Positions 1,984-62,297 of a stretch of 64,000 nucleotides of DNA are shown in pieces (position 1 is the first letter of the stretch; each line of letters begins with the position of its first letter). The notes beneath the pieces are model-generated. The model was given only the letters and a program-made list of their open reading frames with translations. It did no database searches and was not told the origin of the DNA. Both the position numbers and the translations under genes were made by a program. Source of the DNA: an uncultured bacterium (GTDB taxonomy: Bacteria; Patescibacteriota; Minisyncoccia; Phycocordibacterales; CAIRYW01). The stretch covers positions 86,097 to 150,096 of the forward strand of contig CAVYBO010000002.1 of NCBI GenBank assembly GCA_963766885.1, read 5' to 3'.

Positions 1984-3774
1984 TTACTCCAACACCGCTT
2001 TTATTCTTCTAACTCCTTCGCTTACAGCTTCTTCTTTTTGTATTTTGAAGGTGCCTTTGAGTTCGGAAGTGTTTTTGACATGTGGGCCGCCGCAGAATTC
2101 TTTGGAAAAAGCGTGTTCCAAATCATTGCCAATATAATACACATTTACTCTATCTCCATATTTGTCTCCAAAAAAGTGCAACGCGCCGGTTTTTTCAGCT
2201 TCATCCTTTGGCAGATTGATTAAATTCACAGGCAAAGCCTCGAAGATTTTTTCATTTACGATTTCTTCGACCTTTTTTCTTTCCACATCTGTCATTTTCT
2301 TTGGATGAGTAAAGTCAAAGCGGAGGCGCTCTGGTGTGATGTTACTTCCCTTTTGTGACACGTGATTTCCCAAAACTTCTCGCAGTGCTTGATGAAGCAA
2401 ATGTGTGGCTGTGTGATATTGAATTGTTTTTTCGTCTGTTCCGCCAAGTCCGCCTTTAAACTTTTTCTCTGCGCCAGCGCGAGAAAGTTCTTGATGTTTT
2501 TTAAATTCTTCTTCAAATTGCTTGTCATCAATTGCAATCCCCTTTTCCTTTGCTAATTCTTTTGTCAATTCAAACGGAAATCCGTATGTAGAAAAAAGCA
2601 CAAATGCTTCCTTACCAGAAATTCCGTCAGAATATATTTTTTCAAATTGTTTTATCCCATCTTTCAAAGTTTTTCTAAACTTCTGCTCTTCTTTATCAAT
2701 TTCTGTTTTGATTGTTTCTTTTTTTTGTCCAAGTTCGGGATAAACATTTTTATATTTTTCAATCACACTATCCGCAATCCAAAAAAGCGAGCTACGCTTC
2801 ATTCCCAATTTGTCTGCGTGCAGGACTGCCCTTCGCAAAAGCCGCCGCAACACATATCCTTGATCGGTGTTTGATGGCGCCACGCCGTCGCCGATCAAAA
2901 AAACCGCGCTGCGAATATGGTCTGCAATTATCCTTTTGGATCTGCCAAGTTCTCCGTCTGCTGTGGAAAATTCATTTATTTTTTCAATAATAGGAACAAA
3001 TAAATCAGTATCAAAAACAGTTATCTTGCCCTGCACAACTGTCGCGACTCTTTCAAGGCCAGAGCCAGTGTCAACGTTTTGAGATCTTAGTTTACCGATT
3101 ATTTTGCCGTCTTTTTTCTCATATTCCATAAACACATCGTTCCAAATCTCGATTATTTCTCCCTTGTCATCCATTTTTACAAATTGTTTGGGCGTCAGGC
3201 CGTTTGTGTGCTTGCCGCTTGGGTCGTAAAACATTTCGCTGTCTGGGCCGCACGGGCCGTTATCTCCAGGACTCCACCAATTATTTTTGGCTGGCAAAAA
3301 GAAGATTCTTTCTCCCTTGATTTTGTTTCTATCAAAAATTTCCTGCCAGATTTTTGCAGACTCTGTATCGCGCGGAGCGTTATCGTCCCCTTCAAAACAA
3401 GTTATGTAGAGCCTGTTTGGATCCAAACCAAAACCTTCTTTCTTTGAAGTCAAAAGTTCAAAGCTCCAATTGATTGCGTCTTTTTTAAAATAATCTCCCA
3501 AAGACCAATTGCCAAGCATTTCAAAAAAAGTCAGGTGGCGATTGTCGCTGACTTCTTCAATATCATTTGTGCGAAGGCATTTTTGCACGTCCGCAAGCCT
3601 TTTGCCTTTGGGATGAGGCGTTCCAAGCAAATAGGGCACAAAAGGCTGCATGCCTGCGGTATTAAAAAGCACCGAAGGATCATTCTCTGGCACCAAAGGA
3701 GCGGAAGGAATAATTGCGTGCTCCCTTTTTTCAAAAAATTTTAGGAATCTCTGGCGGATTTCTTCGGAATTCAT
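1984..3774 (-). CDS. alaS: alanine--tRNA ligase, minimalist form (catalytic plus editing core, no C-Ala domain)
   Basis: The N-terminus MNSEEIRQRFLKFFEKREHAIIPSAPLVPENDPSVLFNTAGM is the class II AlaRS signature. The editing-domain zinc motifs HxxxH (TATHLLHQAL) and CGGPH are present. The ORF is only 596 aa. Confidence 0.85.
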   Translation of the reverse strand: MNSEEIRQRFLKFFEKREHAIIPSAPLVPENDPSVLFNTAGMQPFVPYLLGTPHPKGKRLADVQKCLRTNDIEEVSDNRHLTFFEMLGNWSLGDYFKKDAINWSFELLTSKKEGFGLDPNRLYITCFEGDDNAPRDTESAKIWQEIFDRNKIKGERIFFLPAKNNWWSPGDNGPCGPDSEMFYDPSGKHTNGLTPKQFVKMDDKGEIIEIWNDVFMEYEKKDGKIIGKLRSQNVDTGSGLERVATVVQGKITVFDTDLFVPIIEKINEFSTADGELGRSKRIIADHIRSAVFLIGDGVAPSNTDQGYVLRRLLRRAVLHADKLGMKRSSLFWIADSVIEKYKNVYPELGQKKETIKTEIDKEEQKFRKTLKDGIKQFEKIYSDGISGKEAFVLFSTYGFPFELTKELAKEKGIAIDDKQFEEEFKKHQELSRAGAEKKFKGGLGGTDEKTIQYHTATHLLHQALREVLGNHVSQKGSNITPERLRFDFTHPKKMTDVERKKVEEIVNEKIFEALPVNLINLPKDEAEKTGALHFFGDKYGDRVNVYYIGNDLEHAFSKEFCGGPHVKNTSELKGTFKIQKEEAVSEGVRRIKAVLE

Positions 3775-9933: not shown

Positions 9934-12843
9934 TCAGTTTTTAACCACAAAATTGACTATTTTGTTCTTCACTACTATCGTCTTTATCACATTTTTTCCA
10001 TCAATTTTTGTGGCAATTTGTGGCAGTTTTTTTATTTTTTCCAAGACAATATTTTCTTCAGCATCTTTTTTCACCTCTATTGTTCCTCTTGTCTTGCCGT
10101 TGATCTGAATTGCTATTGTTACTTGCTCATTTTCAACTATTTTTGAATCAAAATTTGGCCATTTTGAGGCAAAAATAGAATTCTTGTTACCAATCTCCTT
10201 CCATAATTCTTCACAGGTGTGTGGAGCAAATGGAGAAAGGATTATTAATAATTTTTCAAAAGATTTTTTAGTAATTGATTTGTGCTCATAGATACTATTT
10301 GTACAGATCATAAGTGCAGAAATTGCTGTGTTGAATGCCGTGCTTTCAATATCCTCGCCGACTTTTTTGATTACTTTATTGATTGCGATTGTTACTTCTT
10401 TGGGTTCGCTTTTTGTAATCAATTCTTTTATTCCAAAAACTCTTTCAATAAATCTTCTCGCACCGATGATGCCTTTGTCATTCCATGCAATCTGAGCTTC
10501 GTGCGGGCCGAGGAAGGCCATATAAACTCGCATGGTGTCTGCTCCGTAAAGTTTGACGATATCATCCGGATTGACCACGTTTCCCCTGCTCTTGCTCATT
10601 TTTTCGCCATCTGGACCAAGGATTATTCCGTGAGGAATTCTTTTGGTAAAAGGTTCTTTGGCCGTGACAAGTTTTTGGTCATACAAAAATTGATTCCAAA
10701 ATCTTGAATACAAAAGATGTAGAGTGGTGTGTTCCATTCCACCCAAATAAATATCCACAGGGGTCCAATATTTTTGTTTTTTAATGTCAGCAAATTCCTT
10801 TGTATTTTTTGGATCAGTGTATCGAAGCCAATACCAAGAACTTCCCGCCCACTGCGGCATTGTGTTTGTTTCGCGCTTTGCGTTGCCTTTGCATATTGGA
10901 CATTTCGTATTTACCCATTTATCAATTTTAGCCAGCGGCGATTCGCCTGTGCCTGTTGGTTCGTAGTTTTTTACCTTTGGTAAGATCACAGGCAAATCTT
11001 TGTCAGGTACGGGCACAGCGCCGTGCTTGTCGCAATGAATTACAGGAATCGGCTCGCCCCAATATCTCTGGCGGGAAAACACCCAGTCGCGAAGTTTATA
11101 TTTTGTAACAATTTTTCCTCCTACAAATTCTATAATTCTTTTAATCGCTTCACCGCTTGAAAGTTCCGAAAAATTTCCAGAATTTATAACTTTACCTTTG
11201 CCTGTGAATATATGATCTTCTTTTGAGTTAAGCGCTCGCCAGATGGCCGATATTTCTCCTACAGGATTAAATGATTTTGGTATTGATTCATATGGAACCC
11301 AAGAAATACTGTGCTTGGATTTTTCTTCATCATTTATTTCGTCATGAAGATCATCTGCTAAAACTAATTCAAAAACATGCATATGCGCGTACCGATTCTC
11401 ATCTTTGTGCTCGGCATACCATTCAGAACGCATTTCATGTCCAATGCGTCTAATTGATGAAAAGTTTTTATAACCAGTTTCTTCATAAACTTCACGTTTT
11501 ACTGCATCTTCAAGATTTTCATTATTTTCGGCACCACCAATTACAAAAGTTTTCCATGGAAACTTTTTCCAAACAATCTGGAGGACAGCATTATTTTTTA
11601 AATTTCTTACAATCCCCTGCACAACTATTCTCGGAGCATTTTGTTTGTCTTTTCTTGGAGGATTTTTCTCATCAATAAAATGTTCAGCGACAACTTGTCT
11701 TATTGGCAAGTTAAATTTCTTTGCGAATTCAAAATCTCGTGTATCGTGCGCTGGCACAGCCATAATCGCTCCAGTTCCGTAACCACCAAGCACGTAATCA
11801 GCAACAAAAATTGGAATTTCTTTTTGGCTTGCTGGGTTTATTGCCTTTACTCCTTTGAGTTCCACTCCAGTTTTTTCTTTTCCTTCAGAGGTGCGCTCTA
11901 TTTCAGATTTATTTTTTACTTGCCTAATATATTTTTTGACCTCTTCTTTATTTTCAAGGACGTTATGTTCGTTGTCTGTTGCAAGTGTGACCCACAAATG
12001 TTCTGGTGCAAGCACTAAATACGTTGCTCCAAAAATGGTGTCGGGACGAGTGGTAAAAATTTTTAGATGGGCTTTCTCTCCGTTTGGTCCTCGTCTTTTA
12101 TTGTCGTCAGGATTTTTTTTGAAATCCAAGTAAAAATCAATTTCTGCCCCTTCTGATTTACCAATCCAATTCTCTTGCTGGATTTTTACAGCTTCCGGCC
12201 ATTCTGGAAGATGTTTTAATCCTTCCAAAAGCTTTTCTGCATAGTCAGTGATTTTCAGATACCACTGACGAAGTTCTTTTTTCTCAACGGGTGTTCCGCA
12301 GCGTTCGCATTTACCGTCAATTACTTCTTCATTTGCAAGCCCTGTTTTATCTTTTGGACACCAATTGATCAAGCCTGTGGCTTCATACGCCAAACCCTTG
12401 CTCAAAAGTTCCAAAAATATTTTCTGCGTCCACTTATAATATTTTGGATCGCTCGTATTTATTTCTCTTGACCAATCAAACCCTGTGCCCCAACTCATGA
12501 GCTGCTTTTTGGCATTTGCAATATTTTTTTTAGTAGAAACTTCTGGATGGACTTTGTTTTTGATCGCATAGTTTTCGGCGGGTAATCCAAAAGCATCCCA
12601 ACCAATTGGATAAACAGTATTTAATTCTTTCAGTTTGTAATATTTTGACATTGCGTCTCCTGCAAGATATGGCCGAAGGTGTCCCATATGAAGTCCTGCT
12701 CCAGAAGGGTATGGGAATTCAATCAAAACATATTTTTTCTTACCTTTGTTTTCTTTACTATTTTCTTTTGCCTCAAAAACTTTTTTGGATTTCCAAAAGT
12801 TCTGCCATTTCTTTTCAATTTTCTTCGGATCGTATTTATTCAT
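9934..12843 (-). CDS. leuS: leucine--tRNA ligase with an inserted NUDIX domain
   Basis: The ORF has the HMGH class I motif (PYPSGAGLHMGHLRPY), KMSKS (GEKMSKSRGN) and the editing-domain end VPAHDTRDFEFAKKFNLPI. It has a roughly 150-aa insert with the NUDIX box GGAENNENLEDAVKREVYEETGY (nt 11470-11538 on the minus strand) before KLRDWVFSRQRYWGEPIP. Confidence 0.9.
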   Translation of the reverse strand: MNKYDPKKIEKKWQNFWKSKKVFEAKENSKENKGKKKYVLIEFPYPSGAGLHMGHLRPYLAGDAMSKYYKLKELNTVYPIGWDAFGLPAENYAIKNKVHPEVSTKKNIANAKKQLMSWGTGFDWSREINTSDPKYYKWTQKIFLELLSKGLAYEATGLINWCPKDKTGLANEEVIDGKCERCGTPVEKKELRQWYLKITDYAEKLLEGLKHLPEWPEAVKIQQENWIGKSEGAEIDFYLDFKKNPDDNKRRGPNGEKAHLKIFTTRPDTIFGATYLVLAPEHLWVTLATDNEHNVLENKEEVKKYIRQVKNKSEIERTSEGKEKTGVELKGVKAINPASQKEIPIFVADYVLGGYGTGAIMAVPAHDTRDFEFAKKFNLPIRQVVAEHFIDEKNPPRKDKQNAPRIVVQGIVRNLKNNAVLQIVWKKFPWKTFVIGGAENNENLEDAVKREVYEETGYKNFSSIRRIGHEMRSEWYAEHKDENRYAHMHVFELVLADDLHDEINDEEKSKHSISWVPYESIPKSFNPVGEISAIWRALNSKEDHIFTGKGKVINSGNFSELSSGEAIKRIIEFVGGKIVTKYKLRDWVFSRQRYWGEPIPVIHCDKHGAVPVPDKDLPVILPKVKNYEPTGTGESPLAKIDKWVNTKCPICKGNAKRETNTMPQWAGSSWYWLRYTDPKNTKEFADIKKQKYWTPVDIYLGGMEHTTLHLLYSRFWNQFLYDQKLVTAKEPFTKRIPHGIILGPDGEKMSKSRGNVVNPDDIVKLYGADTMRVYMAFLGPHEAQIAWNDKGIIGARRFIERVFGIKELITKSEPKEVTIAINKVIKKVGEDIESTAFNTAISALMICTNSIYEHKSITKKSFEKLLIILSPFAPHTCEELWKEIGNKNSIFASKWPNFDSKIVENEQVTIAIQINGKTRGTIEVKKDAEENIVLEKIKKLPQIATKIDGKNVIKTIVVKNKIVNFVVKN

Positions 12844-47112: not shown

Positions 47113-47232
47113 GAAGTAATTATAATATAAAACGACTTGATTAGCACTTTCATCACTTTTCAAATTTAATTTTGCTTAAATTCATTTTTTCTTATAATCT
47201 ATATCGGTTCGCCTGCCTGACTGCAGGCAAGT

Positions 47233-47303
47233 TGCCGGATCGTCTAATGGTAGGACATCGCCCTTTGGAGGCGGCTATCTTGGTTCGAATCCAAGTCCGG
47301 CAG
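47233..47303 (+). tRNA. tRNA-Gln(TTG)
   Basis: TGCCGGATCGTCTAATGGTAGGACATCGCCCTTTGGAGGCGGCTATCTTGGTTCGAATCCAAGTCCGGCAG has a 7-bp acceptor stem, U8, anticodon loop CTTTGGA and a TTCGAAT T-loop. No CCA is encoded. Confidence 0.8.
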
Positions 47304-47330
47304 TTTTTACTCTGGTATAATCTTAATTAC

Positions 47331-51117: not shown

Positions 51118-51253
51118 AGAAATTTATGTAATATTTTTAAAAAAATTAAGTCCTGTAAATATTACATTTTATAAGTCATATTTACAAGTATCTCTAAAAA
51201 ACCCATAAATAAAAGCCCTAAACTGCTTTTTGTAAGTTCAATATATCAGGTAG

Positions 51254-51282
51254 TTGACATAATTCCATTAAACTATCATAAT
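51254..51282 (+). promoter_or_regulatory. sigma-70-like promoter
   Basis: TTGACA, a 17-nt spacer and CATAAT. Confidence 0.35.
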
Positions 51283-51318
51283 TAAACAGTTATAACGTTC
51301 TTTGAAATTGGCTTCTTT

Positions 51319-51370
51319 TTGCCATAGCATAGAGCGTCTTTTTTAGTGAGGATGTTCTATGCTGTGGCAA
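51319..51370. repeat. 15-bp inverted repeat (14/15 match) with 22-nt loop in the 5' leader of the GC-elevated gene
   Basis: ttgccatagcataga ... tctatgctgtggcaa. Confidence 0.6.
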
Positions 51371-51444
51371 AGCCTTAAATTAGGCAGAGCCTGCTTCCTA
51401 AGCAATACACTACAAACCCAACCCATACCTAGAAAAAAAAGATA

Positions 51445-52149
51445 ATGCAACGTCAAAATCCGCAAGGAACTTTGGACAGGACTGATCAGTTTGCGCGAGG
51501 GTCTTCTGCTGATAAAATCGACGCATTAGTGGCAGAAATTAGGCGCAACTTCTCGGACGCTCAGATAGAGCGGCTAGCGACCGACCCAGATCTAATCCTG
51601 GGTATACGTGAGTGTATTGAACACCGCGGCAGCATCAAACTGATGACGCACTCAATCGATTGCGGCACATTAGTTTCTTGCAGTCCTGGCTGGGAAATAC
51701 CTCCGGAATACCAAATGCTGCCGGTACACTACTCTGGTGTTCTGGAGTGGAACAAAGAAGAACAGGTCGGGGCCATTCATGTCGTTAAGAGAAACGGCAA
51801 TGCGAACTATCTCGGCAAAAAAGCCCCGCTCGTTCAGGAGCTTTTCTGGAAAGGTACGTACCCGGCAAACGTCGGGCGCTATCTGGTAGAGAACCCAGTC
51901 CTCATCCCCAAAGAATGGTGTCGTTACCTCAAAGTATTCTTTTTTGGAACCATCTTTAGCACTAAACCGCCCTACACCAATTATAGCGGTCCAAGGGACC
52001 TCTACGTCATGTTCATTGAAAAACGTGGCGGCAAATGGCAGGCGGACTATCTCCTCCTAGACGAGACCCGATTAGGGCCAGAGATCGCCGTGGCGTGCCA
52101 CGATGGAAACCAAAAAGGAAACGAGAACGAGGTCGTGCTGAGTTCATAA
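51445..52149 (+). CDS. hypothetical protein, compositionally foreign (mid GC)
   Basis: The 234-aa ORF has noticeably higher GC and different codon usage than its neighbours and no recognisable motif. Confidence 0.5.
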   Translation: MQRQNPQGTLDRTDQFARGSSADKIDALVAEIRRNFSDAQIERLATDPDLILGIRECIEHRGSIKLMTHSIDCGTLVSCSPGWEIPPEYQMLPVHYSGVLEWNKEEQVGAIHVVKRNGNANYLGKKAPLVQELFWKGTYPANVGRYLVENPVLIPKEWCRYLKVFFFGTIFSTKPPYTNYSGPRDLYVMFIEKRGGKWQADYLLLDETRLGPEIAVACHDGNQKGNENEVVLSS

Positions 52150-52165
52150 CAACTGGAACAGTATC

Positions 52166-52200
52166 AGTCCCGCATTTACACTGCGGGACTAATTTTTTTA
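52166..52200 (+). terminator. rho-independent terminator
   Basis: agtcccgca-tttacac-tgcgggact is followed by aattttttta. Confidence 0.6.
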
Positions 52201-52222: not shown

Positions 52223-53245
52223 TTAAAGACTGATCACAAACAATTCCAGAGAAAGCTCTGGAATAAATGATCTTTCAGCTTGCATCAGCGCCTGAAGAAG
52301 CTTTCTTAAAACTTCAATACTTAAATCAAGATCTTTAGAATCAGATGCGTTTTTAATAAATTTAATTCTGTCTTCTGAATATTTTTTTAGCAAGGATCCT
52401 TCCTGAAATTTAGATACTCTGATCAAAACAATTTCACGGATTTTTTCCAAAACCAGTCTGCCAAAAAGATTTATATTTATTTCGGCTTCTTCGATATCCT
52501 TCAAAATTTTCAAGGCTTCATCAATATTTTTTTTACCTACTGCCAAAATAAAATTTTCTATCAAAGATTCTCTTGGAGCTCCCAGAGCTTTTTCTGTGTC
52601 AGTTAATTTTATTGATTTGCCAGATATAAACCCGATTGTCTTTTGTAATGCGCCAAACGCGTCTCGAAAGGAACCTCCTGCAACCAGTGCAATCAACTCA
52701 GCGGCGTTTTCTTCAATATCAAATCCCTCTTTTTTGGAGACTTCGGAAACAACTTTAGAAATTATACAAGTGGTTGGTTTTTTGAATTCACAAATCTGGC
52801 AACGGGATTGGATTGTTTCTGGGATTTTTTCCAATTCTGTCGTGGCCATAATAAATAAAACATGCTTAGGAGGCTCTTCCAAAGTTTTAAGCAGCGCGTT
52901 CCACGCTTCACGTGTGAGCATATGAGCTTCGTCTATAATGTAAACCTTTTTCTTGGATGAAAATGGCATAGTCTCAATCGTTTCTCTAAGCGTGCGAATG
53001 TCATCAATTCCCCTGTTTGATGCTGCGTCTATTTCGTACAAATCATCGTCTGTAGTACCAAGTTCTTTGGCTAAAATTCTGGCAACAGAAGTTTTGCCCG
53101 TGCCGCGGGAACCGGCAAAAATGTATGCGTGTGAAAGCCTCTCTTCCGAAATAGAATTTTGAAGAAGTAAGACAGTCTGCTCTTGTCCGATTATTTCTTC
53201 AAAATTTTTGGGACGATATTTTCTATAAAGCGTTTCGTGATTCAT
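52223..53245 (-). CDS. dnaX: DNA polymerase III subunit gamma/tau, short form
   Basis: YRPKNFEEIIGQE ..., Walker A GSRGTGKTS and sensor motifs are present. The start is taken at MNHETLYRKYRP. Confidence 0.85.
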   Translation of the reverse strand: MNHETLYRKYRPKNFEEIIGQEQTVLLLQNSISEERLSHAYIFAGSRGTGKTSVARILAKELGTTDDDLYEIDAASNRGIDDIRTLRETIETMPFSSKKKVYIIDEAHMLTREAWNALLKTLEEPPKHVLFIMATTELEKIPETIQSRCQICEFKKPTTCIISKVVSEVSKKEGFDIEENAAELIALVAGGSFRDAFGALQKTIGFISGKSIKLTDTEKALGAPRESLIENFILAVGKKNIDEALKILKDIEEAEININLFGRLVLEKIREIVLIRVSKFQEGSLLKKYSEDRIKFIKNASDSKDLDLSIEVLRKLLQALMQAERSFIPELSLELFVISL

Positions 53246-53286
53246 AAAAAATATTATAGCAAAGAAAGAGAAAATAAATTTAATAT

Positions 53287-53326
53287 AAAAAGAAACCGAC
53301 CGCTTGCAAAGGTACAAGCGGTCGGT
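53287..53326 (-). terminator. GC-rich rho-independent terminator following the GC-rich gene
   Basis: A 12-bp stem accgaccgcttg / caagcggtcggt is followed on the minus strand by a U-run. Confidence 0.5.
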
Positions 53327-53438
53327 GATATGAGTTTGAGAATCGCCTGCCCTCAGGCCAGTCGGGTTTTACCCCTTCGGAGAATTTAATCTCCTTTTCA
53401 GATTCTCATTTCATACCTGCTTTTAACCCCATGAAGGG

Positions 53439-53945
53439 TTAACCTGCGGCGTAGTGGCCGCCGGTGGTCTTCGTGTAAATGCCGACGGCGCTCGTCCAGT
53501 GCGATTCATAATTGGCCGGCGCGGTGGTATTTTGCGAGGACGAGGCGTAGCCGTCGATGCAGATCGGCAATCTGAATTGCCAGATGCCGAAGGCATTGTT
53601 GTAGGTAAGCGTGGTCCCGGTGTTGGGCGGCGTCGTCGTCTTCACGAGCATGCGGTCGAAGTGGAACTTCGGCGCTTGGAGCCCGGATTCCGTCGGCGGT
53701 CGCGCGATGGCGCTTTCGAAGGCCTGACCAGTCTCGGAAGTCTGGATGATCCAGACCGCGGGGATGAACCCGCCGTGGTCGTAATAGCTAAACGCCGGCG
53801 GAATGCCGACGTCGGGCGCGGGCGGCGCCGAGGCCGTGATCACATTGGTCTCATTTTTGGTGCCGGCGCCGAGGCCGTGCCAGCAGTAATACGCGGTTGC
53901 AATGATGGCCAAGAAGGCCAAGCGTTTGTTTTTGAGGATTTTCAT
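53439..53945 (-). CDS. secreted hypothetical protein encoded in a high-GC island
   Basis: The roughly 168-aa ORF begins at MKILKNKRLAFLAIIATAYYCWHG (a signal peptide). It has a strongly G/C-ending codon third position, unlike the rest of the window. Confidence 0.55.
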   Translation of the reverse strand: MKILKNKRLAFLAIIATAYYCWHGLGAGTKNETNVITASAPPAPDVGIPPAFSYYDHGGFIPAVWIIQTSETGQAFESAIARPPTESGLQAPKFHFDRMLVKTTTPPNTGTTLTYNNAFGIWQFRLPICIDGYASSSQNTTAPANYESHWTSAVGIYTKTTGGHYAAG

Positions 53946-54152
53946 CCGTTTTTCCTTTCGTTTGTTTGTTGTTGTTTTTGACTCAACCAGTATCCGGAAC
54001 AATCAGTAACGTTGCTTTTTGCCACCTCCTGAGATGGTTATGGGCAGGTATGAAATTGTTAAAGACCACAAGTTTTATCGTGTCAAATATTAACTCTAAA
54101 TTAAAACTTGTCAAGTGTTTTTCAAAAGTTATCCACAATAGACTTCTTCTTT

Positions 54153-55226
54153 TCAGGTCGCTTTGCTCCCGAAAATAAAGTCGTCCGCAACTGCCTCTAC
54201 TTGGCTGGCATTGTCAGTTTCCATCAATTTTATCCGCAAATCTTTGGCTCCCTCGAATCCATCAACATAAGCTTTAAAATGTTTTTTCATAATTGCAAAA
54301 TTTTTGTAACCAGTAAGTTTTTCCTCAAAAATTTTTGTGTGTTCTACCATAACTTTTAGCTTTTGTTCCACAGGAATGTCTTTTGTCGAGTACGTGCGCC
54401 CGTCTGCTGACGGGCTTCTAGCGTCCGCCGCCAGTCGCGGCTTCCGATCCTCTCCAAAAGACATTCCTTCAAATAGCCACGGGTTGCCGAAAATTCCTCG
54501 GCCAATCATTACTCCATCACAGCCTGTTTCTTCTGCTCTTTTTATTCCCTCTTCAATATTTTTTACATCTCCATTACCAATAATTAAAGTGTCCACTTTC
54601 ATATCATTACGAATCTCAACAGCGCGCTTTATATAATTCCAATTTGCTAGAACTTTAGACATTTCTTTTCTGGTACGAGCATGGATAGTCAGAGCCGCAA
54701 TATTTTCTTCAAGCAGTGCTGGGATCCACTCTTCAATTTCTAATTTATTAAATCCGACCCTAGTCTTCACAGAAATTGGAATTTTATTTTCCACTCCCCG
54801 CTTTGCGGCTTGAATTATTTCTTTGGCAAGTTTTGGATTTTTAATCAAGGCCGCGCCTGCGCATTGCTTTTCAATCGTTTTGTCCGGACAGCCCATATTT
54901 ATATCGAGTCCGTCAAATCCCAAATCTAAAACTATTTTTGCAGCGCCTTCAATGTATTCTGGTCTGCCGCTAAAAATCTGCGCGACGATCGGACGCTCAA
55001 TTTCAGAATATTCCAGATCCTTAAGAAGTTTTTTCTTGCCTTCTTCATTTGCGCGGCAGAGACCGTCTGCAGAAACGAATTCGGTCCACATTACATTTGG
55101 CTTGCCATATTTGGCGATAATTTGACGGAACGCGGCGTCGGTAACATCCGCCATTGGAGCAAGCGCAAAAAAGGGCATGTCTCGCAACAAGCCGGGCTTG
55201 CGTAGATTTTTCCAAAAATTATTCAT
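54153..55226 (-). CDS. dus: tRNA-dihydrouridine synthase
   Basis: The ORF has a TIM-barrel Dus core (LAPMADVTD ..., catalytic INMGCP) and a C-terminal helical domain. Confidence 0.85.
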   Translation of the reverse strand: MNNFWKNLRKPGLLRDMPFFALAPMADVTDAAFRQIIAKYGKPNVMWTEFVSADGLCRANEEGKKKLLKDLEYSEIERPIVAQIFSGRPEYIEGAAKIVLDLGFDGLDINMGCPDKTIEKQCAGAALIKNPKLAKEIIQAAKRGVENKIPISVKTRVGFNKLEIEEWIPALLEENIAALTIHARTRKEMSKVLANWNYIKRAVEIRNDMKVDTLIIGNGDVKNIEEGIKRAEETGCDGVMIGRGIFGNPWLFEGMSFGEDRKPRLAADARSPSADGRTYSTKDIPVEQKLKVMVEHTKIFEEKLTGYKNFAIMKKHFKAYVDGFEGAKDLRIKLMETDNASQVEAVADDFIFGSKAT

Positions 55227-55233
55227 TATATAT

Positions 55234-56385
55234 TTAATTCTGATCTGGATTGCCGGCTAAAGAAAACTTCATATGGTTTTCAATAAATCCAAGCAGAGCT
55301 CCAACATCATTATTTCTGTTGGGGCTTTTTAAAACAATTACCACTATATTTCTCTGTGTCCCACTGATAGAAATGCGATAAAAGGCAACTGCAGTTTCCG
55401 AAGCCGCTTCAGTGTATCCATTTTTCCCGCCAAGAAAAACTTTATACTGCATCAGCTGATTTCCGTTGTACCATATGTGATTTATATTTGCTATTTCATA
55501 CTGTTTTACTTGGGTAATATTGAGAATATTTGGAGTAAAACTCGGATTTTGATCTTCTTTATAGATATATAAAGCAAGTTTTAAAAGATCATTTGCCGTA
55601 GTCAGATTCTCATGAGAGACGCCGCTTGGCTCCACAAATGTTGAGTTTGTCATTCCAATAGACTCTGCTTTCTGATTCATCAATCCAACAAAAGGATCTT
55701 TGCCGTATTTGTAGTTTTCAGCAATAACTTCCGCTGCATTGTTTGAAGATTCCATTAAAAGCGGATACAAAATATCTGAAAGAAGAATGTGTTCATTTGG
55801 TTCAAGAACTTGTTCGGAACCATACACCGAAAGAGCTTTGCTGGTTACCAATAAGTCTTGGTTGAGAGGCATATTTTCTGTTGCAACCAAAGTCGTTAAA
55901 AGTTTTGTTAAAGATGCTGGTGGAAATATTCCATCAGGATCTTTGCTAAGTATTACTTCTCCTGTGTCTGCATCTGCCACCAAATAGGAAATAGCATTGA
56001 CCTTTGGAGATGTGTAGTCGTTATTTTTAAAATAATATTCTGCTGGCGTATCTGATGCCACCGCATTAGCCGGCGGACCATCTGAATCATTTGAGCCTTC
56101 CGTTATTTTTGGAGCACTTTGAACTGGAGTGACGGTTTGTAAGGTGTTTTGCTGACTTTGGTCAGGAGAAAATAAAGACGCCAAAGCGCCTTCCCCGCCA
56201 ACGACAAAACTCATTGCCGAAAAGCCAATAACCAAAGAAGCAATTCCCCAGACAAAAAAAGATTTTAGTCCCTGTCTGTTGTAAGGTGATTCTGATATAA
56301 AAACAACCTTTTCTCCGTGCGGACCGAGATCGATTTTCTTTAAATAAATTGGGTCAATATTGTATTCGTTTCTCCTCTTATCCAT
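55234..56385 (-). CDS. D-alanyl-D-alanine carboxypeptidase, peptidase S11
   Basis: The ORF has an N-terminal TM, an SxxK motif (PASLTKL) and SGN/KTG-like motifs. Confidence 0.8.
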   Translation of the reverse strand: MDKRRNEYNIDPIYLKKIDLGPHGEKVVFISESPYNRQGLKSFFVWGIASLVIGFSAMSFVVGGEGALASLFSPDQSQQNTLQTVTPVQSAPKITEGSNDSDGPPANAVASDTPAEYYFKNNDYTSPKVNAISYLVADADTGEVILSKDPDGIFPPASLTKLLTTLVATENMPLNQDLLVTSKALSVYGSEQVLEPNEHILLSDILYPLLMESSNNAAEVIAENYKYGKDPFVGLMNQKAESIGMTNSTFVEPSGVSHENLTTANDLLKLALYIYKEDQNPSFTPNILNITQVKQYEIANINHIWYNGNQLMQYKVFLGGKNGYTEAASETAVAFYRISISGTQRNIVVIVLKSPNRNNDVGALLGFIENHMKFSLAGNPDQN

Positions 56386-58759
56386 TTACCTTTAGTCTAA
56401 CAGAATCCCCATCTGTTTCAAAATAAGCTTCCTTTCCTGATTTTAATTTTCCCGATATAAGTGCTTTTGCAATATCTTCTTCAAGATTTTCCTCAATCGC
56501 TCGACGCATAGGACGAGCGCCAAATTTGGGATCGCTGCCGATTTTTACCAGATAATCAAGTATTTTGTCGGATGCGGCAAGTTTTATTGCTTTCTTTTCG
56601 AGTCTGTCTTGAAGCTCTGCAAACATCAGTGAAGCTATTTGCTTTAAATCAATATTTGTCAGCGGATGAAAAAATATAATGCCGTCAAAACGGTTCAAAA
56701 GCTCTGGAGCAAATATCTTTTCTTTGATTATACTGTCAATAATTTTGTCTTTTTCAGAGTAAAGATCTGCTCCAGATTGAACAACATCCCAAATCATTGA
56801 GCTTCCCGCGTTTGATGTTGCAATAAATATTGTGTCCCTAGCATTTATTTTTTTACTTTCTGCGTCCGTAAAAAATCCCTCGTCAAATACCTGAAGAAAT
56901 AAGTTATGAATCTCATATGTCGCCTTTTCAAATTCATCAAGCAAAAGTACTCCGTATGGATGATCGCGAAGCAATGTTGACAAAGATCCCTGTTTTTTAT
57001 TTCCATAGGAACCTATGAGCCGCGCCATAGCATCATTGGCTTGATATTCCGACATGTCAATTCTTGAAAGCTTGGCAGAATCCTTGAACATGACTTCAGC
57101 AAGAGCTTTGGCGGTTTCTGTTTTACCCACTCCAGTCGGACCTAAAAACAGAAATGATCCCATAGGGCGGCTTTGGCTTGAAATTCCCGCGCGGGACCTT
57201 CGGAGTGCCGAAGAGATGGACTTAATCGCCTCGTCTTGGCCAATTATTTTTTTATGCAAAACATTTTCTAAATCAAGCAATTTGTCTTTTTCGTCTGACT
57301 CAGGGTTAAGTGAAGGCACGCCTGTTTTTTCTTCAATGATTTTAAGTACGTCTTTTTCAACCAAAACTCTTCTTTTTTGGGATTTTACATAAGATACTGC
57401 GTCCAGAAGAATTGTTCTGGATTCACCACTCTCGGCATAGCCGCCAAAATGCTTCATCGATTCATTTTTGATAGTAAGCAGCGCAGGAAAAGTTATTAAA
57501 ACACCCTTCTCAGCTTCAACTAAAAAAGCTTCTCTTTTAAGCATTTCTAAATCGGCATCTTCGCCCTCTTCTTCAATTTTTATCACTTCCATCTTATGCG
57601 TCAGACCAGAATACAAATCTCTGTTTTCATCAAAAGTGTTCATGTCCTCTAAGATAACAATACTGACTGATTGGGAAGAAAGAACTGGTTGAAGCATTGA
57701 AATAACATCAATGCCGCCAACTGACTCGGTTTTTATAAAGGAAACAAATCTTGGAAATACCACAACGGTATTTCCTGCAGCGGCGGCTTCAACCAAGGAC
57801 TTAAATAAAATTTCTTCAATTTCCTTTGGCTGCTTGGAGCCTTCTAAAACGGTTTCTGGTTCAATTAAAAATATCTTTTTATAAGAAAGTTCGGAAGAGG
57901 CTTCTCCGTTTCTGATTTTTTCTGCAAGCAAACTCATCACATCAACACCTTCTTCTTCGCTTTGACAAATCAGAATCGCGTTTGCTCCGTAACTTTTTGA
58001 CAACGCCCTTTCAACTCTGGAAACTGCGTTCTGATAAAGCTTTTTAAATCCGTCCAAGCTGCCGGACATTGAATTGTTAAGATTTTTGGCGATCCTTTCC
58101 AATTGATATGCTTCTTTGTCCGACCAATCTTTGCCGATGCCAGGAATCTTTGAAATCTTTTCCAAAGACCAAAATCTCTGCTGATCAACCAATTCTTCTG
58201 TTCTGGAGACAACCCAATTAAAACAGCCAGAAAATTGCTCAGGCGAAATACCACGGGACAAAAGGAAATTTTTTATAGACGGCAGATCAGAAAATTCCTT
58301 TGCTATTTTTTGGTCAGTTATGTCTTCGGGAAGAGACTCGCAAAAGTTTTTTGGTCTGGATTTTATAAAAGATACAACATCTCCTTCAGAAATACCGAGC
58401 CTGAGCATCACCTCGTCTCCAATATCTGAAAAGAAAAATCCTCTGACAGGATCACAGTCCTCAGAGTGGAACAGTATCTGTCCATTTAAAAAGGAAAAGG
58501 GATTTTCATCTTTATATGACTGATTAAAAAGAGAAAAATAAAAGCAATCCAAACCATAGAAAACCAGACTGACTGAGAGCAAAACAAAAAATATTCCCAA
58601 ATACACACCTAACCCGCTAAAAATAAAAACAATTAAAAAGAGAATTTCAAAATATGAAAGAGACTTTATTATTTTTCTTCGGAATTGATGAGAAATCGCA
58701 TCTTCCAAAACCAATGCCGGGTAATAGTTTATTTTGCTTTTTAATATGTTTAGGTTCAT
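56378..58759 (-). CDS. membrane-anchored ClpA/B/C-like AAA+ ATPase (degenerate first module, intact D2)
   Basis: The ORF has N-terminal TM helices. No Walker A is found in the first half. The C-terminal D2 has GPTGVGKTE, sensor 2 and a ClpB D2-small domain (GARPMRRAIE). Confidence 0.75.
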   Translation of the reverse strand: MNLNILKSKINYYPALVLEDAISHQFRRKIIKSLSYFEILFLIVFIFSGLGVYLGIFFVLLSVSLVFYGLDCFYFSLFNQSYKDENPFSFLNGQILFHSEDCDPVRGFFFSDIGDEVMLRLGISEGDVVSFIKSRPKNFCESLPEDITDQKIAKEFSDLPSIKNFLLSRGISPEQFSGCFNWVVSRTEELVDQQRFWSLEKISKIPGIGKDWSDKEAYQLERIAKNLNNSMSGSLDGFKKLYQNAVSRVERALSKSYGANAILICQSEEEGVDVMSLLAEKIRNGEASSELSYKKIFLIEPETVLEGSKQPKEIEEILFKSLVEAAAAGNTVVVFPRFVSFIKTESVGGIDVISMLQPVLSSQSVSIVILEDMNTFDENRDLYSGLTHKMEVIKIEEEGEDADLEMLKREAFLVEAEKGVLITFPALLTIKNESMKHFGGYAESGESRTILLDAVSYVKSQKRRVLVEKDVLKIIEEKTGVPSLNPESDEKDKLLDLENVLHKKIIGQDEAIKSISSALRRSRAGISSQSRPMGSFLFLGPTGVGKTETAKALAEVMFKDSAKLSRIDMSEYQANDAMARLIGSYGNKKQGSLSTLLRDHPYGVLLLDEFEKATYEIHNLFLQVFDEGFFTDAESKKINARDTIFIATSNAGSSMIWDVVQSGADLYSEKDKIIDSIIKEKIFAPELLNRFDGIIFFHPLTNIDLKQIASLMFAELQDRLEKKAIKLAASDKILDYLVKIGSDPKFGARPMRRAIEENLEEDIAKALISGKLKSGKEAYFETDGDSVRLKVNG

Positions 58760-59149
58760 TTATTTAATAATTAAATAAAATCCATCAAAAAATAATAATA
58801 CTATGATCAAGGGATAAAATATCCAGATAAAAAAGACTGCGATTACTAGCAGCACTCCAAATACTATTGCAACAATTCCCACAACAACTACACAAAACCG
58901 GATAAGAGCTCCGATAAGCCGCATCAGCATATTTAAGGCTAATACACCTAAAGACTCTGTAATGTTTGTTACCGAAGTGTTTGCATATCTTTCACCAAGA
59001 CCTTTCCAAGGCGCAAAGAAAGTATGGGTCAACAATCTTATTGAAAAAAAATCATACAAGAAAAAAATAAAATTCTTCTCATTTAAAATAAGATCTCTGA
59101 TTGCCTTGGTGTAATGCCACTGAACATACGAAACTGTTAAACTAAACAT
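58760..59149 (-). CDS. polytopic small membrane protein (hypothetical)
   Basis: The 129-aa hydrophobic ORF abuts the Clp-like gene. Confidence 0.45.
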   Translation of the reverse strand: MFSLTVSYVQWHYTKAIRDLILNEKNFIFFLYDFFSIRLLTHTFFAPWKGLGERYANTSVTNITESLGVLALNMLMRLIGALIRFCVVVVGIVAIVFGVLLVIAVFFIWIFYPLIIVLLFFDGFYLIIK

Positions 59150-59192
59150 ATTATAATTATAGCTTTTTTATAACTTACTGCATAAATTACTG

Positions 59193-59999
59193 TTAAGAAT
59201 TGCTGCTGCCTTTGCTTTTTAAAAGCACTTTGTTGCCGAAACGAAGATCAATATATTCTGTGTTGTTTTTGTTAAAGTTTTTAAGATCCGGTGAGGAAAG
59301 CGTCTGTTTTAAATAATAAAGCGATTCATCGGCGCTTTCATCCAAACCCAATTTAAAATACATACCAGACGCATCAGTTAAGTCTGCTTCGTCCTGACTT
59401 ACAGTGAAGCTGGAAATTGAAAAGTTGAGACTTCTTACTCCATTTATAAAATCAAAAACCGTTTGTATATCGTTTGCTGATGCAGACATAAATCCTATCT
59501 TTGGGTTATCACCATTTTGAAAAATAATATAAGCATTGCCCTGAATTTCCGGAGCCGGAGCAAAGGCAAGTCCAGAACCATCAACATAATCACAAAGAGT
59601 TAAATTACACCAGAGAAAAAGCGGCACGCGCTCCGTGAGATTTATATTCAACATACCGGAATTTATTGTGAGTGAAATTGCTTTGACCGATGTTGCCGAA
59701 AGAGTTTTGAATATTTCTTTTTTTGGATAAAAGAAGATGCTGTTTTTTGGAATAAGCCCAAAAAGATATGAACCTTCGAGCTCGTCTGAAATCTTGGACT
59801 GAACAGCTGACAAATCTTCGTACGCAAGCGAAGACACCCTAACATCTTTTATTCGAAACACGTCAAGGCGAAAAAGATAGTAAGATCCAGCAAGCAAGAA
59901 AAGAATAATTAAAATCAATACCAGAAAAAAAAGCCTCCATCCGCCTTTTTTTCTCTCTTTGGCAAAATTAATATTTTTTATTTGTATACGAGACTTCAT
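59193..59999 (-). CDS. ftsQ: cell-division protein FtsQ/DivIB-like (POTRA)
   Basis: The ORF has an N-terminal TM, a POTRA-like segment (FRIKDVRVS) and a beta-rich C-terminus. Confidence 0.6.
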   Translation of the reverse strand: MKSRIQIKNINFAKERKKGGWRLFFLVLILIILFLLAGSYYLFRLDVFRIKDVRVSSLAYEDLSAVQSKISDELEGSYLFGLIPKNSIFFYPKKEIFKTLSATSVKAISLTINSGMLNINLTERVPLFLWCNLTLCDYVDGSGLAFAPAPEIQGNAYIIFQNGDNPKIGFMSASANDIQTVFDFINGVRSLNFSISSFTVSQDEADLTDASGMYFKLGLDESADESLYYLKQTLSSPDLKNFNKNNTEYIDLRFGNKVLLKSKGSSNS

Positions 60000-60007
60000 T
60001 CAAAATT

Positions 60008-61300
60008 TTAAAGTATTGAAAGCTTTTGAATAAAAGTTTTTCCGTACATATATTTTTTGAGCGCTTCAGGAATTTCAACTTCTCCTTTCTCAGTCTGATA
60101 GTTTTCGATAATTGCTATCAAAGCTCTTCCAACAGCAACAATTGTTGCGTCATTCATATGAACATAATCAACTTTGCCATCGGCACGCTTAACACGGGTA
60201 TTAAGGCGACGCGGCTGAAAGCCCGCAATCAAATCAGCACTGTGTGTTTCCCTATATTTATCTTGTCCCGGCATCCACGTCTCAACGTCAATCTGCCTAA
60301 AATCTGGAAATCCCATATCCCCGGAACAAACTGCAACCACTTGGTATGGCAAATTGAGTTTTTGTAAGATGTGTTCCTGAATTGCTATCAGAAAATTCTG
60401 CTCCGCCATCGAATTTTCAGAAAGTGAAAAAACTTCAGCCTCTAATTTATCAAACTGATGTACGCGGATAATTCCTTTTGTGTCTTTACCATAACTCCCC
60501 GCCTCTCTTCTGAAAGCTGTAGAATATCCAACATAGCGAATCGGCAAATCTTTCTCATCAAAAATCTCATCCATATGCATCGGGCCAAGCGTGTGTTCCG
60601 CGCTTCCAACCAGCATCAGATTGTCTTCCGGAAAAATATAATGTTCCTCAGGTGTCAAAAATCTTGCCATTCTGTTTTGAACGGCTGGCTTTACGAAAAC
60701 AGGAGGAATAACAGGAATAAAAGCATCAACATCAATATTTAATCCAACATCAACGGCAATTTTTTGAAGGGTTTCTTTTGAGGTCACGACTCCAAGACAA
60801 AATTGAATTAAGGCAAATTGCATCAGAGCCAAATCTCCTTTTAAATACGCGAATCTTGAAGCGGCCACCTCTGTAGCTGTTTCTGTATCTATAACACCAA
60901 GATCAGCGCCGATTTCAAAATGCTCTTTTGGTTTGAACGAAAACTGTTTTTTTTCTCCCCACTTTCTTATGACTTTGTTTTCTGATTCATCCTTGCCAAT
61001 TGGAGTATCTGGAGAATAAATGTTTGGCACCTTGAGCATCAATGATAAAAATTCTTTATCAATCTCGGTAAATTCCTTTTCTAACTTTTCATGCTCAATT
61101 TTTAGCTTTTGTCCCTCTTCAACATTACGGGTTTTCTGGGCTTCGTTGCGCTTCTGGTTGATGTTATCGAGCTCTGAGCGCAGAGATTTTTTGGATTCGT
61201 ATAAGGCAAGCAGCTTGTCAAAGTCGATTTGACGGTTTTTGTTTTTTGCCGCGTTTTCCACAATTTCCCTGTTTTCTTTTATGAATTTAATATCAAGCAT
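60008..61300 (-). CDS. serS: serine--tRNA ligase
   Basis: The ORF has an N-terminal coiled-coil arm and class II motifs. The start is taken at MLDIKFIKENRE. Confidence 0.9.
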   Translation of the reverse strand: MLDIKFIKENREIVENAAKNKNRQIDFDKLLALYESKKSLRSELDNINQKRNEAQKTRNVEEGQKLKIEHEKLEKEFTEIDKEFLSLMLKVPNIYSPDTPIGKDESENKVIRKWGEKKQFSFKPKEHFEIGADLGVIDTETATEVAASRFAYLKGDLALMQFALIQFCLGVVTSKETLQKIAVDVGLNIDVDAFIPVIPPVFVKPAVQNRMARFLTPEEHYIFPEDNLMLVGSAEHTLGPMHMDEIFDEKDLPIRYVGYSTAFRREAGSYGKDTKGIIRVHQFDKLEAEVFSLSENSMAEQNFLIAIQEHILQKLNLPYQVVAVCSGDMGFPDFRQIDVETWMPGQDKYRETHSADLIAGFQPRRLNTRVKRADGKVDYVHMNDATIVAVGRALIAIIENYQTEKGEVEIPEALKKYMYGKTFIQKLSIL

Positions 61301-61355
61301 AGTAAAATAATAGCACTGTTTTTTAATATTTAAAAAAATTAAAATCAAGATCGGA

Positions 61356-62222
61356 ATGTTAGAAAAATATCCAATTAGAAAAATTGAGGCCAAAGACTTA
61401 TCTTTGAGCCTGCTTGAAATTCCTGAACCGCCAGGCACACTATATATACGTGGCAATCTTCCACCCCAAAATTTTATTTATCTCACAGTTGTCGGTTCTC
61501 GAAAAGCAAGCTCCTACGGCAAAGACGCAACCAAGAAAATTATCTCCGGGCTGGCAGGATACCCGATAGTAATTGTCTCTGGACTTGCAATTGGGATTGA
61601 TTCAATCGCTCACAACGCTGCATTGGATGCTGGAATTTTTACAATGTCTTTTCCAGGTTCAGGACTCGGAGAAAAATTTATTGCGCCAAGCAGCCATTTG
61701 CCATTGGCCAAAAATATTTTAGATGCCGGCGGCTGCTTAGTTTCAGAAATGAATTCTGATGAACATGGCCAAGCCTGGACATTCCCAAGACGCAACCGTT
61801 TGATGGCGGGAATTTCCAAAGCCGTGCTAGTAGTAGAAGCAGAAAAACCATCAGGCACGTTGATTACCTCCAAGCTTGCAACCGATTATAATCGTGACGT
61901 TTTTGCCGTACCTGGCAGCATTTTTTCCAAAAACTCAGAAGGTCCGCATATGCTGATAAAACTTGGAGCAACACCTGTGGAAAATTCTGACGATGTTTTG
62001 GAAGCACTTGGCATCAAACCAAGCAACGCTGTGGGACAATTACCGCTATTAGATTTATCCAAAGAAGAAAAAACTTTATTAGATATTCTAGCCGTCCCCT
62101 CGAGTCGTGATGAAATCTCAGAAAAATTGGATTGGGATATTTCTAAAATTTCAGAAACTTTAACTCTCCTTGAAATAAAGGGAGTAATAAAAGAACACTT
62201 GGGCAAAATACATCTTGCGTAG
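61356..62222 (+). CDS. dprA: DNA-processing protein DprA (Smf)
   Basis: The ORF has a Rossmann-like DprA core (VVGSRKASSYG ... IVSGLAIGIDSIAH) and a C-terminal winged helix. Confidence 0.85.
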   Translation: MLEKYPIRKIEAKDLSLSLLEIPEPPGTLYIRGNLPPQNFIYLTVVGSRKASSYGKDATKKIISGLAGYPIVIVSGLAIGIDSIAHNAALDAGIFTMSFPGSGLGEKFIAPSSHLPLAKNILDAGGCLVSEMNSDEHGQAWTFPRRNRLMAGISKAVLVVEAEKPSGTLITSKLATDYNRDVFAVPGSIFSKNSEGPHMLIKLGATPVENSDDVLEALGIKPSNAVGQLPLLDLSKEEKTLLDILAVPSSRDEISEKLDWDISKISETLTLLEIKGVIKEHLGKIHLA

Positions 62223-62297
62223 CAGATAAATTTGCAAAAAAAATGAGGTGCGTGTAATACTTATCGCACAAGTATAAATATCAAGTGAATATATAGT

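Follow-up and report, generated by a model that had tools for sequence, protein, structure and literature searches.

Between the tRNA-dihydrouridine synthase gene dus and dnaX, which encodes the gamma/tau subunit of the DNA polymerase clamp loader, a 64-kb stretch of bacterial DNA (the whole of which we call the window) carries a short GC-rich island with an open reading frame (ORF) on the minus strand. We consider it fairly probable that this island is one real foreign protein-coding gene, inserted in the dus-dnaX spacer of a Paceibacteria-type genome of the candidate phyla radiation (CPR). Positions 53439-53945 are 60.6% GC, compared to 38.8% for the window, and form the top GC peak in the 64 kb, ~5.5 standard deviations (sd) over the mean (507-bp windows: mean 38.8%, sd 4.1%). 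The original prediction for this DNA had put the GC content of 53440-53950 at about 60% by eye; the computed value is 60.7% (55.5% over 53285-54010) and this is indeed the highest peak, although the same prediction took the window to be only about one-third GC.

The GC enrichment follows the reading phase of the minus-strand ORF, in which GC contents at the first, second and third codon positions (GC1, GC2 and GC3) are 48, 53 and 81%, respectively. GC3 stays between 0.77 and 0.93 in all 30-codon windows, signal-peptide region included, and the three codon phases fall to equal, background GC just beyond the ORF ends. The period-3 excess of 0.31 lies 9.6 sd above permutations (z = 9.6). With a GC3 of 0.81, the ORF departs from the native level (~0.34) and from the other long ORFs of the window (0.17-0.46), the sole exception among the latter being an ORF at 51445-52149 (0.56). 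Its codon choice runs opposite to that of native genes: of the 21 Ala codons, 19 are GCC or GCG, where native genes prefer GCA and GCT, and ACA, CCA, GGA, GTT and ATA are never used. It should be noted that CTG is absent too, and that many of the codons for Lys, Glu, Gln and Asn still end in A or T. The Gly, Ala, Arg and Pro content (GARP) of the product is 0.315, versus 0.21 ± 0.035 in native proteins. The earlier observation that nearly all codons on the minus strand end in G or C is therefore borne out as a property specific to the coding phase, and the proposed comparison of GC and codon usage, once run, sets the island well above its flanks with codon choice opposed to that of its neighbours. 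Neither tandem repeats nor a diversity-generating retroelement or any other copy of it in the rest of the window were found.

The unit is laid out as follows, from dus to dnaX (L001 is a second contig carrying the same locus, and higher L numbers denote related loci from other genomes, both described below):

54153-55226, minus strand: dus, the native upstream flank (Pfam Dus, E = 2.4e-64; GC3 0.38)
54114-54087, minus strand: sigma-70-like promoter TTGACA-N16/17-TAATAT (consensus scan, 10/12 matches)
54068-54077 and 54102-54111: 10-nt perfect inverted repeat, ACAAGTTTTA / TAAAACTTGT (repeat search)
54056-54036: right arm of a 21-nt inverted repeat, in the 5' untranslated region (UTR) (repeat search)
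53956-53953, minus strand: Shine-Dalgarno (SD) sequence AGGA, 7 nt before the ATG (read from the sequence)
53945 (ATG) to 53439 (TAA), minus strand: GC-rich orphan coding sequence (CDS), 168 aa (GC3, period-3, codon usage)
53454-53981 (L001 8276-8803), plus strand: antisense shadow ORF, 175 aa, Arg/Gly/Asp-rich (gene called in public annotations)
53542 (L001 8715): sole difference between window and L001, codon 135, TCG (Ser) in the window and TAG in L001 (alignment)
~53442-53423, minus strand: small hairpin enclosing the stop codon (read from the sequence)
53428-53408: left arm of the 21-nt inverted repeat, 11 nt past the stop codon (repeat search)
53405-53327, minus strand: further hairpins (sequence and fold)
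53326-53285, minus strand: intrinsic terminator, 12-14 bp stem then TTCTTTTTAT (terminator scan, repeat search)
53258-53253, minus strand: TATAAT box 7 nt before the dnaX ATG, native (read from the sequence)
52223-53245, minus strand: dnaX, the native downstream flank (Pfam DNA_pol3_delta2, E = 3.1e-36, plus AAA)

Public annotations probably call the wrong strand here. On the Logan contig, the gene that was called is the 175-aa antisense frame, whose product also occurs in the NCBI/ENA protein set. As its codons are in register with those of the minus-strand frame, its GC1, GC2 and GC3 are mirrored (~81, 53 and 48% by frame arithmetic), a composition unlike that of a real gene and the expected signature of a shadow ORF. 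The choice of the minus strand in the original prediction thus appears right, given the GC3 signal, the AGGA located 7 nt before the ATG and the signal-peptide-like start. More generally, GC-rich orphans in AT-rich metagenome-assembled genomes (MAGs) may often, or even systematically, be annotated on the wrong strand and thus be missed by protein searches.

The putative promoter begins 39 nt past the dus stop codon, and a similar TTGACA...TATATT sequence directly follows dus in L003 and L062. The ACAAGTTTTA / TAAAACTTGT repeat straddles the -35 box and the predicted transcription start and could, speculatively, be an operator. At the other end of the unit, the left arm of the 21-nt repeat overlaps the 3' arm of the small hairpin enclosing the stop codon. 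Segments 53295-53306 and 53315-53326 form a stem with 12 perfect pairs (the terminator scan counts 14, including 8 G-C pairs). On the minus strand, TTCTTTTTAT comes directly after this stem, and the whole is a textbook intrinsic (Rho-independent) terminator. TATAAT stands 6-7 nt ahead of the dnaX ATG in the window (53243-53258), in L002 (~10985-11000) and in L003 (~3325-3345), a spacing that suggests a leaderless dnaX mRNA in this clade. The 12-bp GC-rich hairpin terminator had been correctly recognised and had been thought to have come with the gene. This second claim is not supported: since the two closest relatives, L002 and L003, show a hairpin and a T-run at the matching place before the TATAAT-ATG start of dnaX, there is no reason to see the terminator as co-imported, and neither it nor the leaderless dnaX promoter need have arrived with the gene.

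Beyond the CDS, the stretches adjoining dus and dnaX are native-like in GC (27% for the promoter-proximal flank and 31% from terminator to dnaX; native intergenic DNA, 32.5 ± 7%). The UTR parts within the 21-nt inverted repeat reach 41-42%, and the segment between left arm and terminator (53327-53407) 47%, so that the GC content of the non-coding parts gives no clear-cut match between the foreign composition and the boundaries set by the repeat.

The 168-aa product starts with MKILKNKRLAFLAIIATAYYCWHG. Its n-region, MKILKNKR, has four positively charged residues; next comes LAFLAIIATAYY (Kyte-Doolittle mean 1.84), a hydrophobic stretch of 12-14 residues, too short for a membrane helix. A signal peptide at the N-terminus is plausible on this basis, with cleavage around GLGA/G as a guess; the AYYC in the product is not a canonical lipobox. 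The signal-peptide protein of the original prediction is thus plausible as regards the charged n-region and the short hydrophobic stretch, while the cleavage site is only guessed. A segment of ~140 aa rich in Thr, Ala, Gly, Pro and Tyr follows, and the product is probably exported to the cell surface or the medium, as far as can be judged from its sequence. The absence of a recognisable domain was likewise confirmed, as searches of Pfam, PHROGs, NCBIfam and the PDB all came back empty. An LRR_TTSS match was discarded as sub-threshold (17 bits versus a cut-off of 21.9).

In search of close relatives that might show an empty site, we scanned one genome per GTDB species for Dus, which yielded 80 loci, all from Paceibacteria-type CPR MAGs (labelled Nomurabacteria, Paceibacterota, Kaiserbacteria and so on). 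The best Dus identity among species representatives was 63%. Both flanking proteins, Dus and DnaX, have their nearest counterparts in Paceibacteria/Nomurabacteria-type MAGs (63% identity at best), in agreement with the earlier assignment of the organism to the CPR. Metagenomes were scanned a second time with the C-terminal, variable half of DnaX as query; this returned a 27% match only and nothing closer. As the lineage is poorly sampled, the age of the insertion is not bracketed. Upstream of dus lie genes for a D-Ala-D-Ala carboxypeptidase and a ClpB-like ATPase, and most of the 80 loci have dnaX after dus in the same orientation.

The dus-dnaX interval is between 12 and 6785 bp long. It is shorter than 100 bp in 22 loci and holds varied, mostly unrelated genes in the rest. 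The island gene itself occurs in none of the 80 loci, the nearest relative being distant (63% Dus identity); blastn, tblastx and BLASTP revealed no homology between the island and the cargo of the other spacers, and no sequence is common to the spacers. We then located the GC maximum of each locus in 300-bp windows over the whole 8-21 kb, for the 43 loci whose spacer measures 350 bp or more. This maximum fell in the dus-dnaX spacer in 14 of these 43 loci, compared to 3.8 expected (P ~5e-6). Cargo GC3 exceeds that of the flanking dus and dnaX by 0.49 in L002, 0.39 in L056, 0.35 in L013 and 0.26 in L032, and by 0.16 to 0.20 in L010, L011, L016 and L074. Signal-peptide or lipobox N-termini are found in cargo of L010, L011, L016, L032 and L074, together with a Big_2 domain in L032. 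Across Paceibacteria, the interval between dus and dnaX forms a variable slot in which unrelated and often GC-enriched cargo recurs, and since other loci carry GC-enriched unrelated inserts there, the island is one case of a recurrent pattern. Of the acquisition in the original prediction, the single gene and its foreign composition stand, but it is no one-off event, as the same spacer recurrently takes unrelated cargo.

Some of the related spacers have an anatomy of their own. In L003 (2846-3310), a TTGACA-N17-TATATT promoter precedes ~430 nt of GC-elevated sequence with no ORF longer than 54 aa, followed by a terminator. This unit has no Rfam match at E up to 1 and a fold z-score of -1.5, and it may be a small RNA candidate or a degraded gene; it looked RNase-P-like by eye, an idea to which covariance models gave no support. 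In L002 (10270-10930, which contains an N run), a GC3-rich ORF of 59-70 aa is followed by ~400 nt of GC-rich, non-periodic sequence, and in L062 (7491-8270) a small GC3-rich ORF of 45 aa is followed by several hundred nt of similar GC-rich, non-periodic sequence. In both, the non-periodic stretch contains strong hairpins of 12-16 bp.

We searched for relatives of the island protein in several collections. A word-indexed search of 5.8 billion clusters gave no homologue, whatever the threshold, and a full HMMER search of 1.84 billion representatives gave no credible one: the sole match, a repetitive Ig-like protein, aligned through nine short Thr/Pro-rich stretches and was judged spurious. No homologue was found in the JGI metagenomes or IMG/VR, and tblastn against plasmids and phages gave no match. 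When the antisense product was searched for wrong-strand relatives, it retrieved the same locus only.

Horizontal transfer most likely explains the gene, because its codon usage fits a higher-GC donor and because the high GC is confined to the CDS; the composition suggests a donor of roughly 60% GC or more. By eye, and with counts too small to weigh, codon usage fits a moderately high-GC donor better than an actinobacterium at 70% GC. Among the related loci are Paceibacteria at 57% GC, with dus/dnaX GC3 values up to 0.85 (L024, L027), and in a survey of horizontal gene transfer in Patescibacteria, the donors were Patescibacteria themselves in 109 of the tabulated events and Actinomycetota in 1 (PMC12455944). 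From this tally and the existence of 57%-GC Paceibacteria, it follows that a high-GC CPR donor is at least as plausible as the host. The original prediction had named the host, for example a high-GC actinobacterium, as the obvious donor and had proposed BLAST searches to identify the lineage. These searches proved empty on both strands and pointed to no donor lineage, so that, with high-GC Paceibacteria in existence, the actinobacterial host is a conjecture; for an orphan gene, GC content by itself gives no means of testing whether the donor was the host. The proposed recency of the acquisition finds no footing either, as none of the collections searched contains a close relative by which the insertion could be dated.

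According to the reading that we favour, transcription would start from the sigma-70-like promoter just past dus and produce an mRNA with an AGGA ribosome-binding site and the 168-codon ORF, ending at the intrinsic terminator, which would insulate the leaderless dnaX promoter downstream. The product, with its Sec-type signal-peptide-like start, would be exported to the surface or the medium. The gene would have arrived by horizontal transfer from a donor of ~60% GC or more, possibly a high-GC CPR bacterium, into a spacer that repeatedly accepts unrelated cargo in this class, and the 21-nt inverted repeat might represent cassette ends or a clamp between the 5' and 3' UTRs.

Several observations weigh against this reading. 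A GC1 of 48% is low for a gene with a GC3 of 81%, and the content in Phe, Tyr, Met, Ile, Asn and Lys (FYMINK) is 0.28, near the native 0.33; this combination is peculiar if the gene was simply imported. The CDS also contains, on the minus strand, a 16-mer (CACGGCCTCGGCGCCG) in two identical copies (53823-53838 and 53864-53879). The two copies are 41 nt apart and are thus read in two different frames, the 25 nt separating them are AT-richer, and the number of chance matches expected for such a repeat in the window is zero; its presence in two frames of a CDS is unexplained. ORF openness alone is weak coding evidence, since 12% of dinucleotide shuffles give a stop-free frame across the GC core. 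AlphaFold2 gave no confident fold (pLDDT 35-36 for both the full and the mature protein), the low values being due to the want of an alignment. The case for transfer is drawn from composition alone because no homologue exists in any collection searched, with neither a donor nor phylogenetic incongruence demonstrable. No integrase or transposase is present among the annotated nearby genes, and there is no target-site duplication. Finally, the TAG allele suggests relaxed constraint.

This allele comes from a comparison of two assemblies. The exact Dus protein is present on two contigs, the 596,164-bp NCBI/ENA contig and a 9,898-bp Logan contig (ERR11630394), referred to here as L001. The latter is collinear with window positions 52359-62256 over its 9,898 bp with one mismatch, the TCG-to-TAG difference at codon 135, and reproduces both junctions of the island. 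No more than the last 34 residues are lost through the TAG, which may be a genuine nonsense polymorphism or an error in GC-rich DNA (a G-to-T change).

That the island is a foreign-derived gene now decaying, a non-functional remnant tolerated in a permissive spacer, is unlikely. The window allele is intact over 168 codons, with period-3 in phase from start to stop, and a promoter-like site, an SD and a terminator are all present, which is not what a remnant would lead one to expect. A decaying gene would, however, fit with the fact that the two assemblies, over 9.9 kb, differ only by a nonsense change within the 507-bp ORF, even if the loss is limited to the C-terminal end and could stem from sequencing or assembly. 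It would also fit the closest relative, L002, where the ORF of 59-70 aa and its ~400-nt tail, possibly a degraded import, occupy the same place, as well as a protein that has neither a homologue nor a confident fold.

GC-rich islands in AT-rich genomes are often RNA genes, and we seriously considered whether the island is a structured non-coding or dual-function RNA gene whose ORF is incidental. This is quite improbable, as a 9.6-sd period-3 signal in phase with an SD-ATG pair and a signal-peptide-like segment would be unexpected in such a gene. The unit does have its own promoter and terminator, its ends can pair via the 21-nt inverted repeat, and 12% of shuffles contain a full-length open frame by chance. 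Moreover, the whole transcript folds with z = -5.9, a value inflated by the terminator and by shuffles that mix AT-rich flanks with the GC core; the core itself scores -2.2 and -2.9 on the two strands, which is modest and alike on both. The promoter-terminator unit of L003, which contains no ORF, and the ORF-poor, GC-rich spacers of L002 and L062 with their strong hairpins offer parallels, but L003 folds near chance and has no Rfam match, and the spacers share no sequence. Rfam returned no match for the window at the gathering score or for the island at E up to 10. In Bacillus subtilis, the gene for the signal recognition particle (SRP) RNA (ffs/scr) lies directly upstream of dnaX, and the island resembles it as a GC-rich unit with its own promoter and terminator at the same position. 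Unlike the SRP RNA gene, it matches no SRP model and carries a coding period-3 signal; nor was there any match to SRP, RNase P, transfer-messenger RNA (tmRNA) or 6S RNA in the window or in ten related loci (Rfam; ARAGORN for tmRNA).

A native gene whose synonymous sites have been driven to G/C locally, by GC-biased gene conversion at a recombination hot spot or by selection on mRNA stability, would account for the low GC1, the near-native FYMINK and the extreme value of GC3 only, for the restriction of high GC to the CDS, and for the elevated GC of the same spacer in many lineages. We give this little probability. Gene conversion would raise the GC of the UTRs too, whereas the promoter flank (27%) and the terminator-to-dnaX stretch (31%) remain low, and the neighbouring dus and dnaX have normal GC3. 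Since the ATP-synthase genes of the window have a GC3 of 0.34-0.38, translational selection does not favour G/C-ending codons here, and the cargo differs by lineage, which implies that no conserved native gene resides at this site. As for an assembly chimera or a contaminant spliced into the contig, which an abrupt compositional shift in a metagenome-derived genome might bring to mind and which the original prediction had raised as a concern, it is very unlikely, because a separate assembly made by a different assembler is identical across both junctions apart from one internal single-nucleotide difference, while a chimera would need two precise misjoins in one spacer that kept both SD-ATG and stop-terminator in place, and the arms of the inverted repeat sit in AT-rich flanks on both sides.

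Returning to the foreign-gene reading, we examined how the island might be bounded. In the 21-nt inverted repeat, 18 of 21 positions are complementary, with a 13-nt perfect core, ATTTCATACCTGC. Of 1000 block-wise dinucleotide shuffles, 3 produced a core of such length between arms separated by 300 nt or more (P ~0.003). The repeat brackets a 649-bp unit (53408-54056), with its arms in the AT-rich flanks on both sides and the promoter outside. Both arms lie within the predicted transcript and pair in its minimum-free-energy fold, where they enclose the SD and the CDS. Further copies of the repeat were absent from the 64-kb window, the 82 loci and IMG/VR, and no cognate insertion sequence (IS) was seen. 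There is no target-site duplication, as the flanks ...GATTCTC| and |TGTTAAAG share nothing, and no tRNA at the dus-dnaX site. A 12-nt flanking direct repeat, TCTYCTTTTCAG (one mismatch), was considered as an att-like duplication and set aside, a hand estimate placing it near chance for a 1-kb AT-rich region. By eye, there is no pair of GTTRRRY cores, and no integrase among the annotated neighbours, that would indicate an integron.

The inverted repeat could be the ends of a cassette, a 5'-3' mRNA clamp or a pair of inversion sites. Mobile insertion cassettes (MICs) are bounded by IS-like inverted repeats and carry passenger genes but no transposase of their own. The island is like them in having a 649-bp unit, 21-nt imperfect inverted repeats, one passenger ORF and no transposase. 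MICs are listed among the transposable elements that need an active transposase (PMC6542083), and a qnrS2-bearing example is mentioned in the abstract of another report (PMC5444012). Unlike MICs, the island has no target-site duplication and no second copy of the repeat or cognate IS, and its promoter lies outside the repeat. That the arms lie in the predicted transcript and pair in its fold is what makes the mRNA clamp possible. Base-pairing between 5' and 3' UTRs of bacterial mRNAs and RNase III processing stems are known systems, and the island, compared from sequence alone, resembles them in having its arms inside the predicted transcript and paired in the minimum-free-energy fold. The inversion-site reading is possible because the promoter lies outside the repeat; inverted repeats do flank the segment, both assemblies show the same orientation, and no recombinase is seen among the annotated nearby genes.

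Atypical acquired genes or islets located between conserved core genes define the hot-spot concept. The island is like such islets in being a single atypical gene between syntenic housekeeping genes, with different cargo per lineage in the dus-dnaX interval and with GC and codon usage that differ strongly from the recipient's; in Patescibacteria, both gene transfer and genomic islands have been described (PMC12455944). Unlike the usual islets, it has no identifiable donor, homologue, mobility gene or tRNA, and its high GC is limited to the CDS. In most bacteria, acquired genes tend to be AT-richer than the recipient, whereas this cargo is GC-richer.

A bolder proposal, which we regard as rather improbable, is that the spacer is a conserved "expression slot", with a strong promoter after dus and a terminator before the leaderless dnaX, repeatedly reloaded with lineage-specific genes of foreign composition that encode small secreted or surface proteins; in the present case the load would be a cassette with inverted repeats at its ends. 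If true, the slot would be a dedicated site at which these episymbionts rapidly exchange host-interaction proteins, by a mechanism different from that of integrons and tRNA-linked islands. CPR bacteria live attached to other cells and their genomes are tiny and streamlined, so that any recently gained secreted protein in them is a candidate host-interaction factor. The island does not overturn current understanding, and the dus-dnaX spacer offers an easily located variable site for sampling accessory, possibly surface-exposed, genes of Paceibacteria.

Other features were observed around the two flanking genes. The window Dus contains an insertion of 26 residues, GEDRKPRLAADARSPSADGRTYSTKD (~265-290; window ~54356-54434), that is absent in L002 and L056 and coincides with a local rise in GC to 46.5%. 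On the opposite side of dnaX, and convergent with it, the second compositional outlier (51445-52149, plus strand) encodes 234 aa at 50.5% GC, with the GC3 of 0.56 given above. It is preceded by a promoter-like site and a long 5' leader hairpin at 51250-51444 and followed by a terminator at 52160-52200; it has no Pfam, PHROG or NCBIfam match and no homologue except itself. A tRNA-Gln(UUG) gene lies just downstream of dnaX in L002 (12134-12205), L064 (2854-2925) and L013 (13599-13671). Its counterpart in the window (47232-47304) is ~5 kb from dnaX and on the other strand, and the intervening DNA holds the 234-aa orphan and a gene for a 978-aa cadherin-like, peptidoglycan-binding surface protein. 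Because these two genes separate tRNA-Gln from dnaX, the downstream side of dnaX has been remodelled as well.

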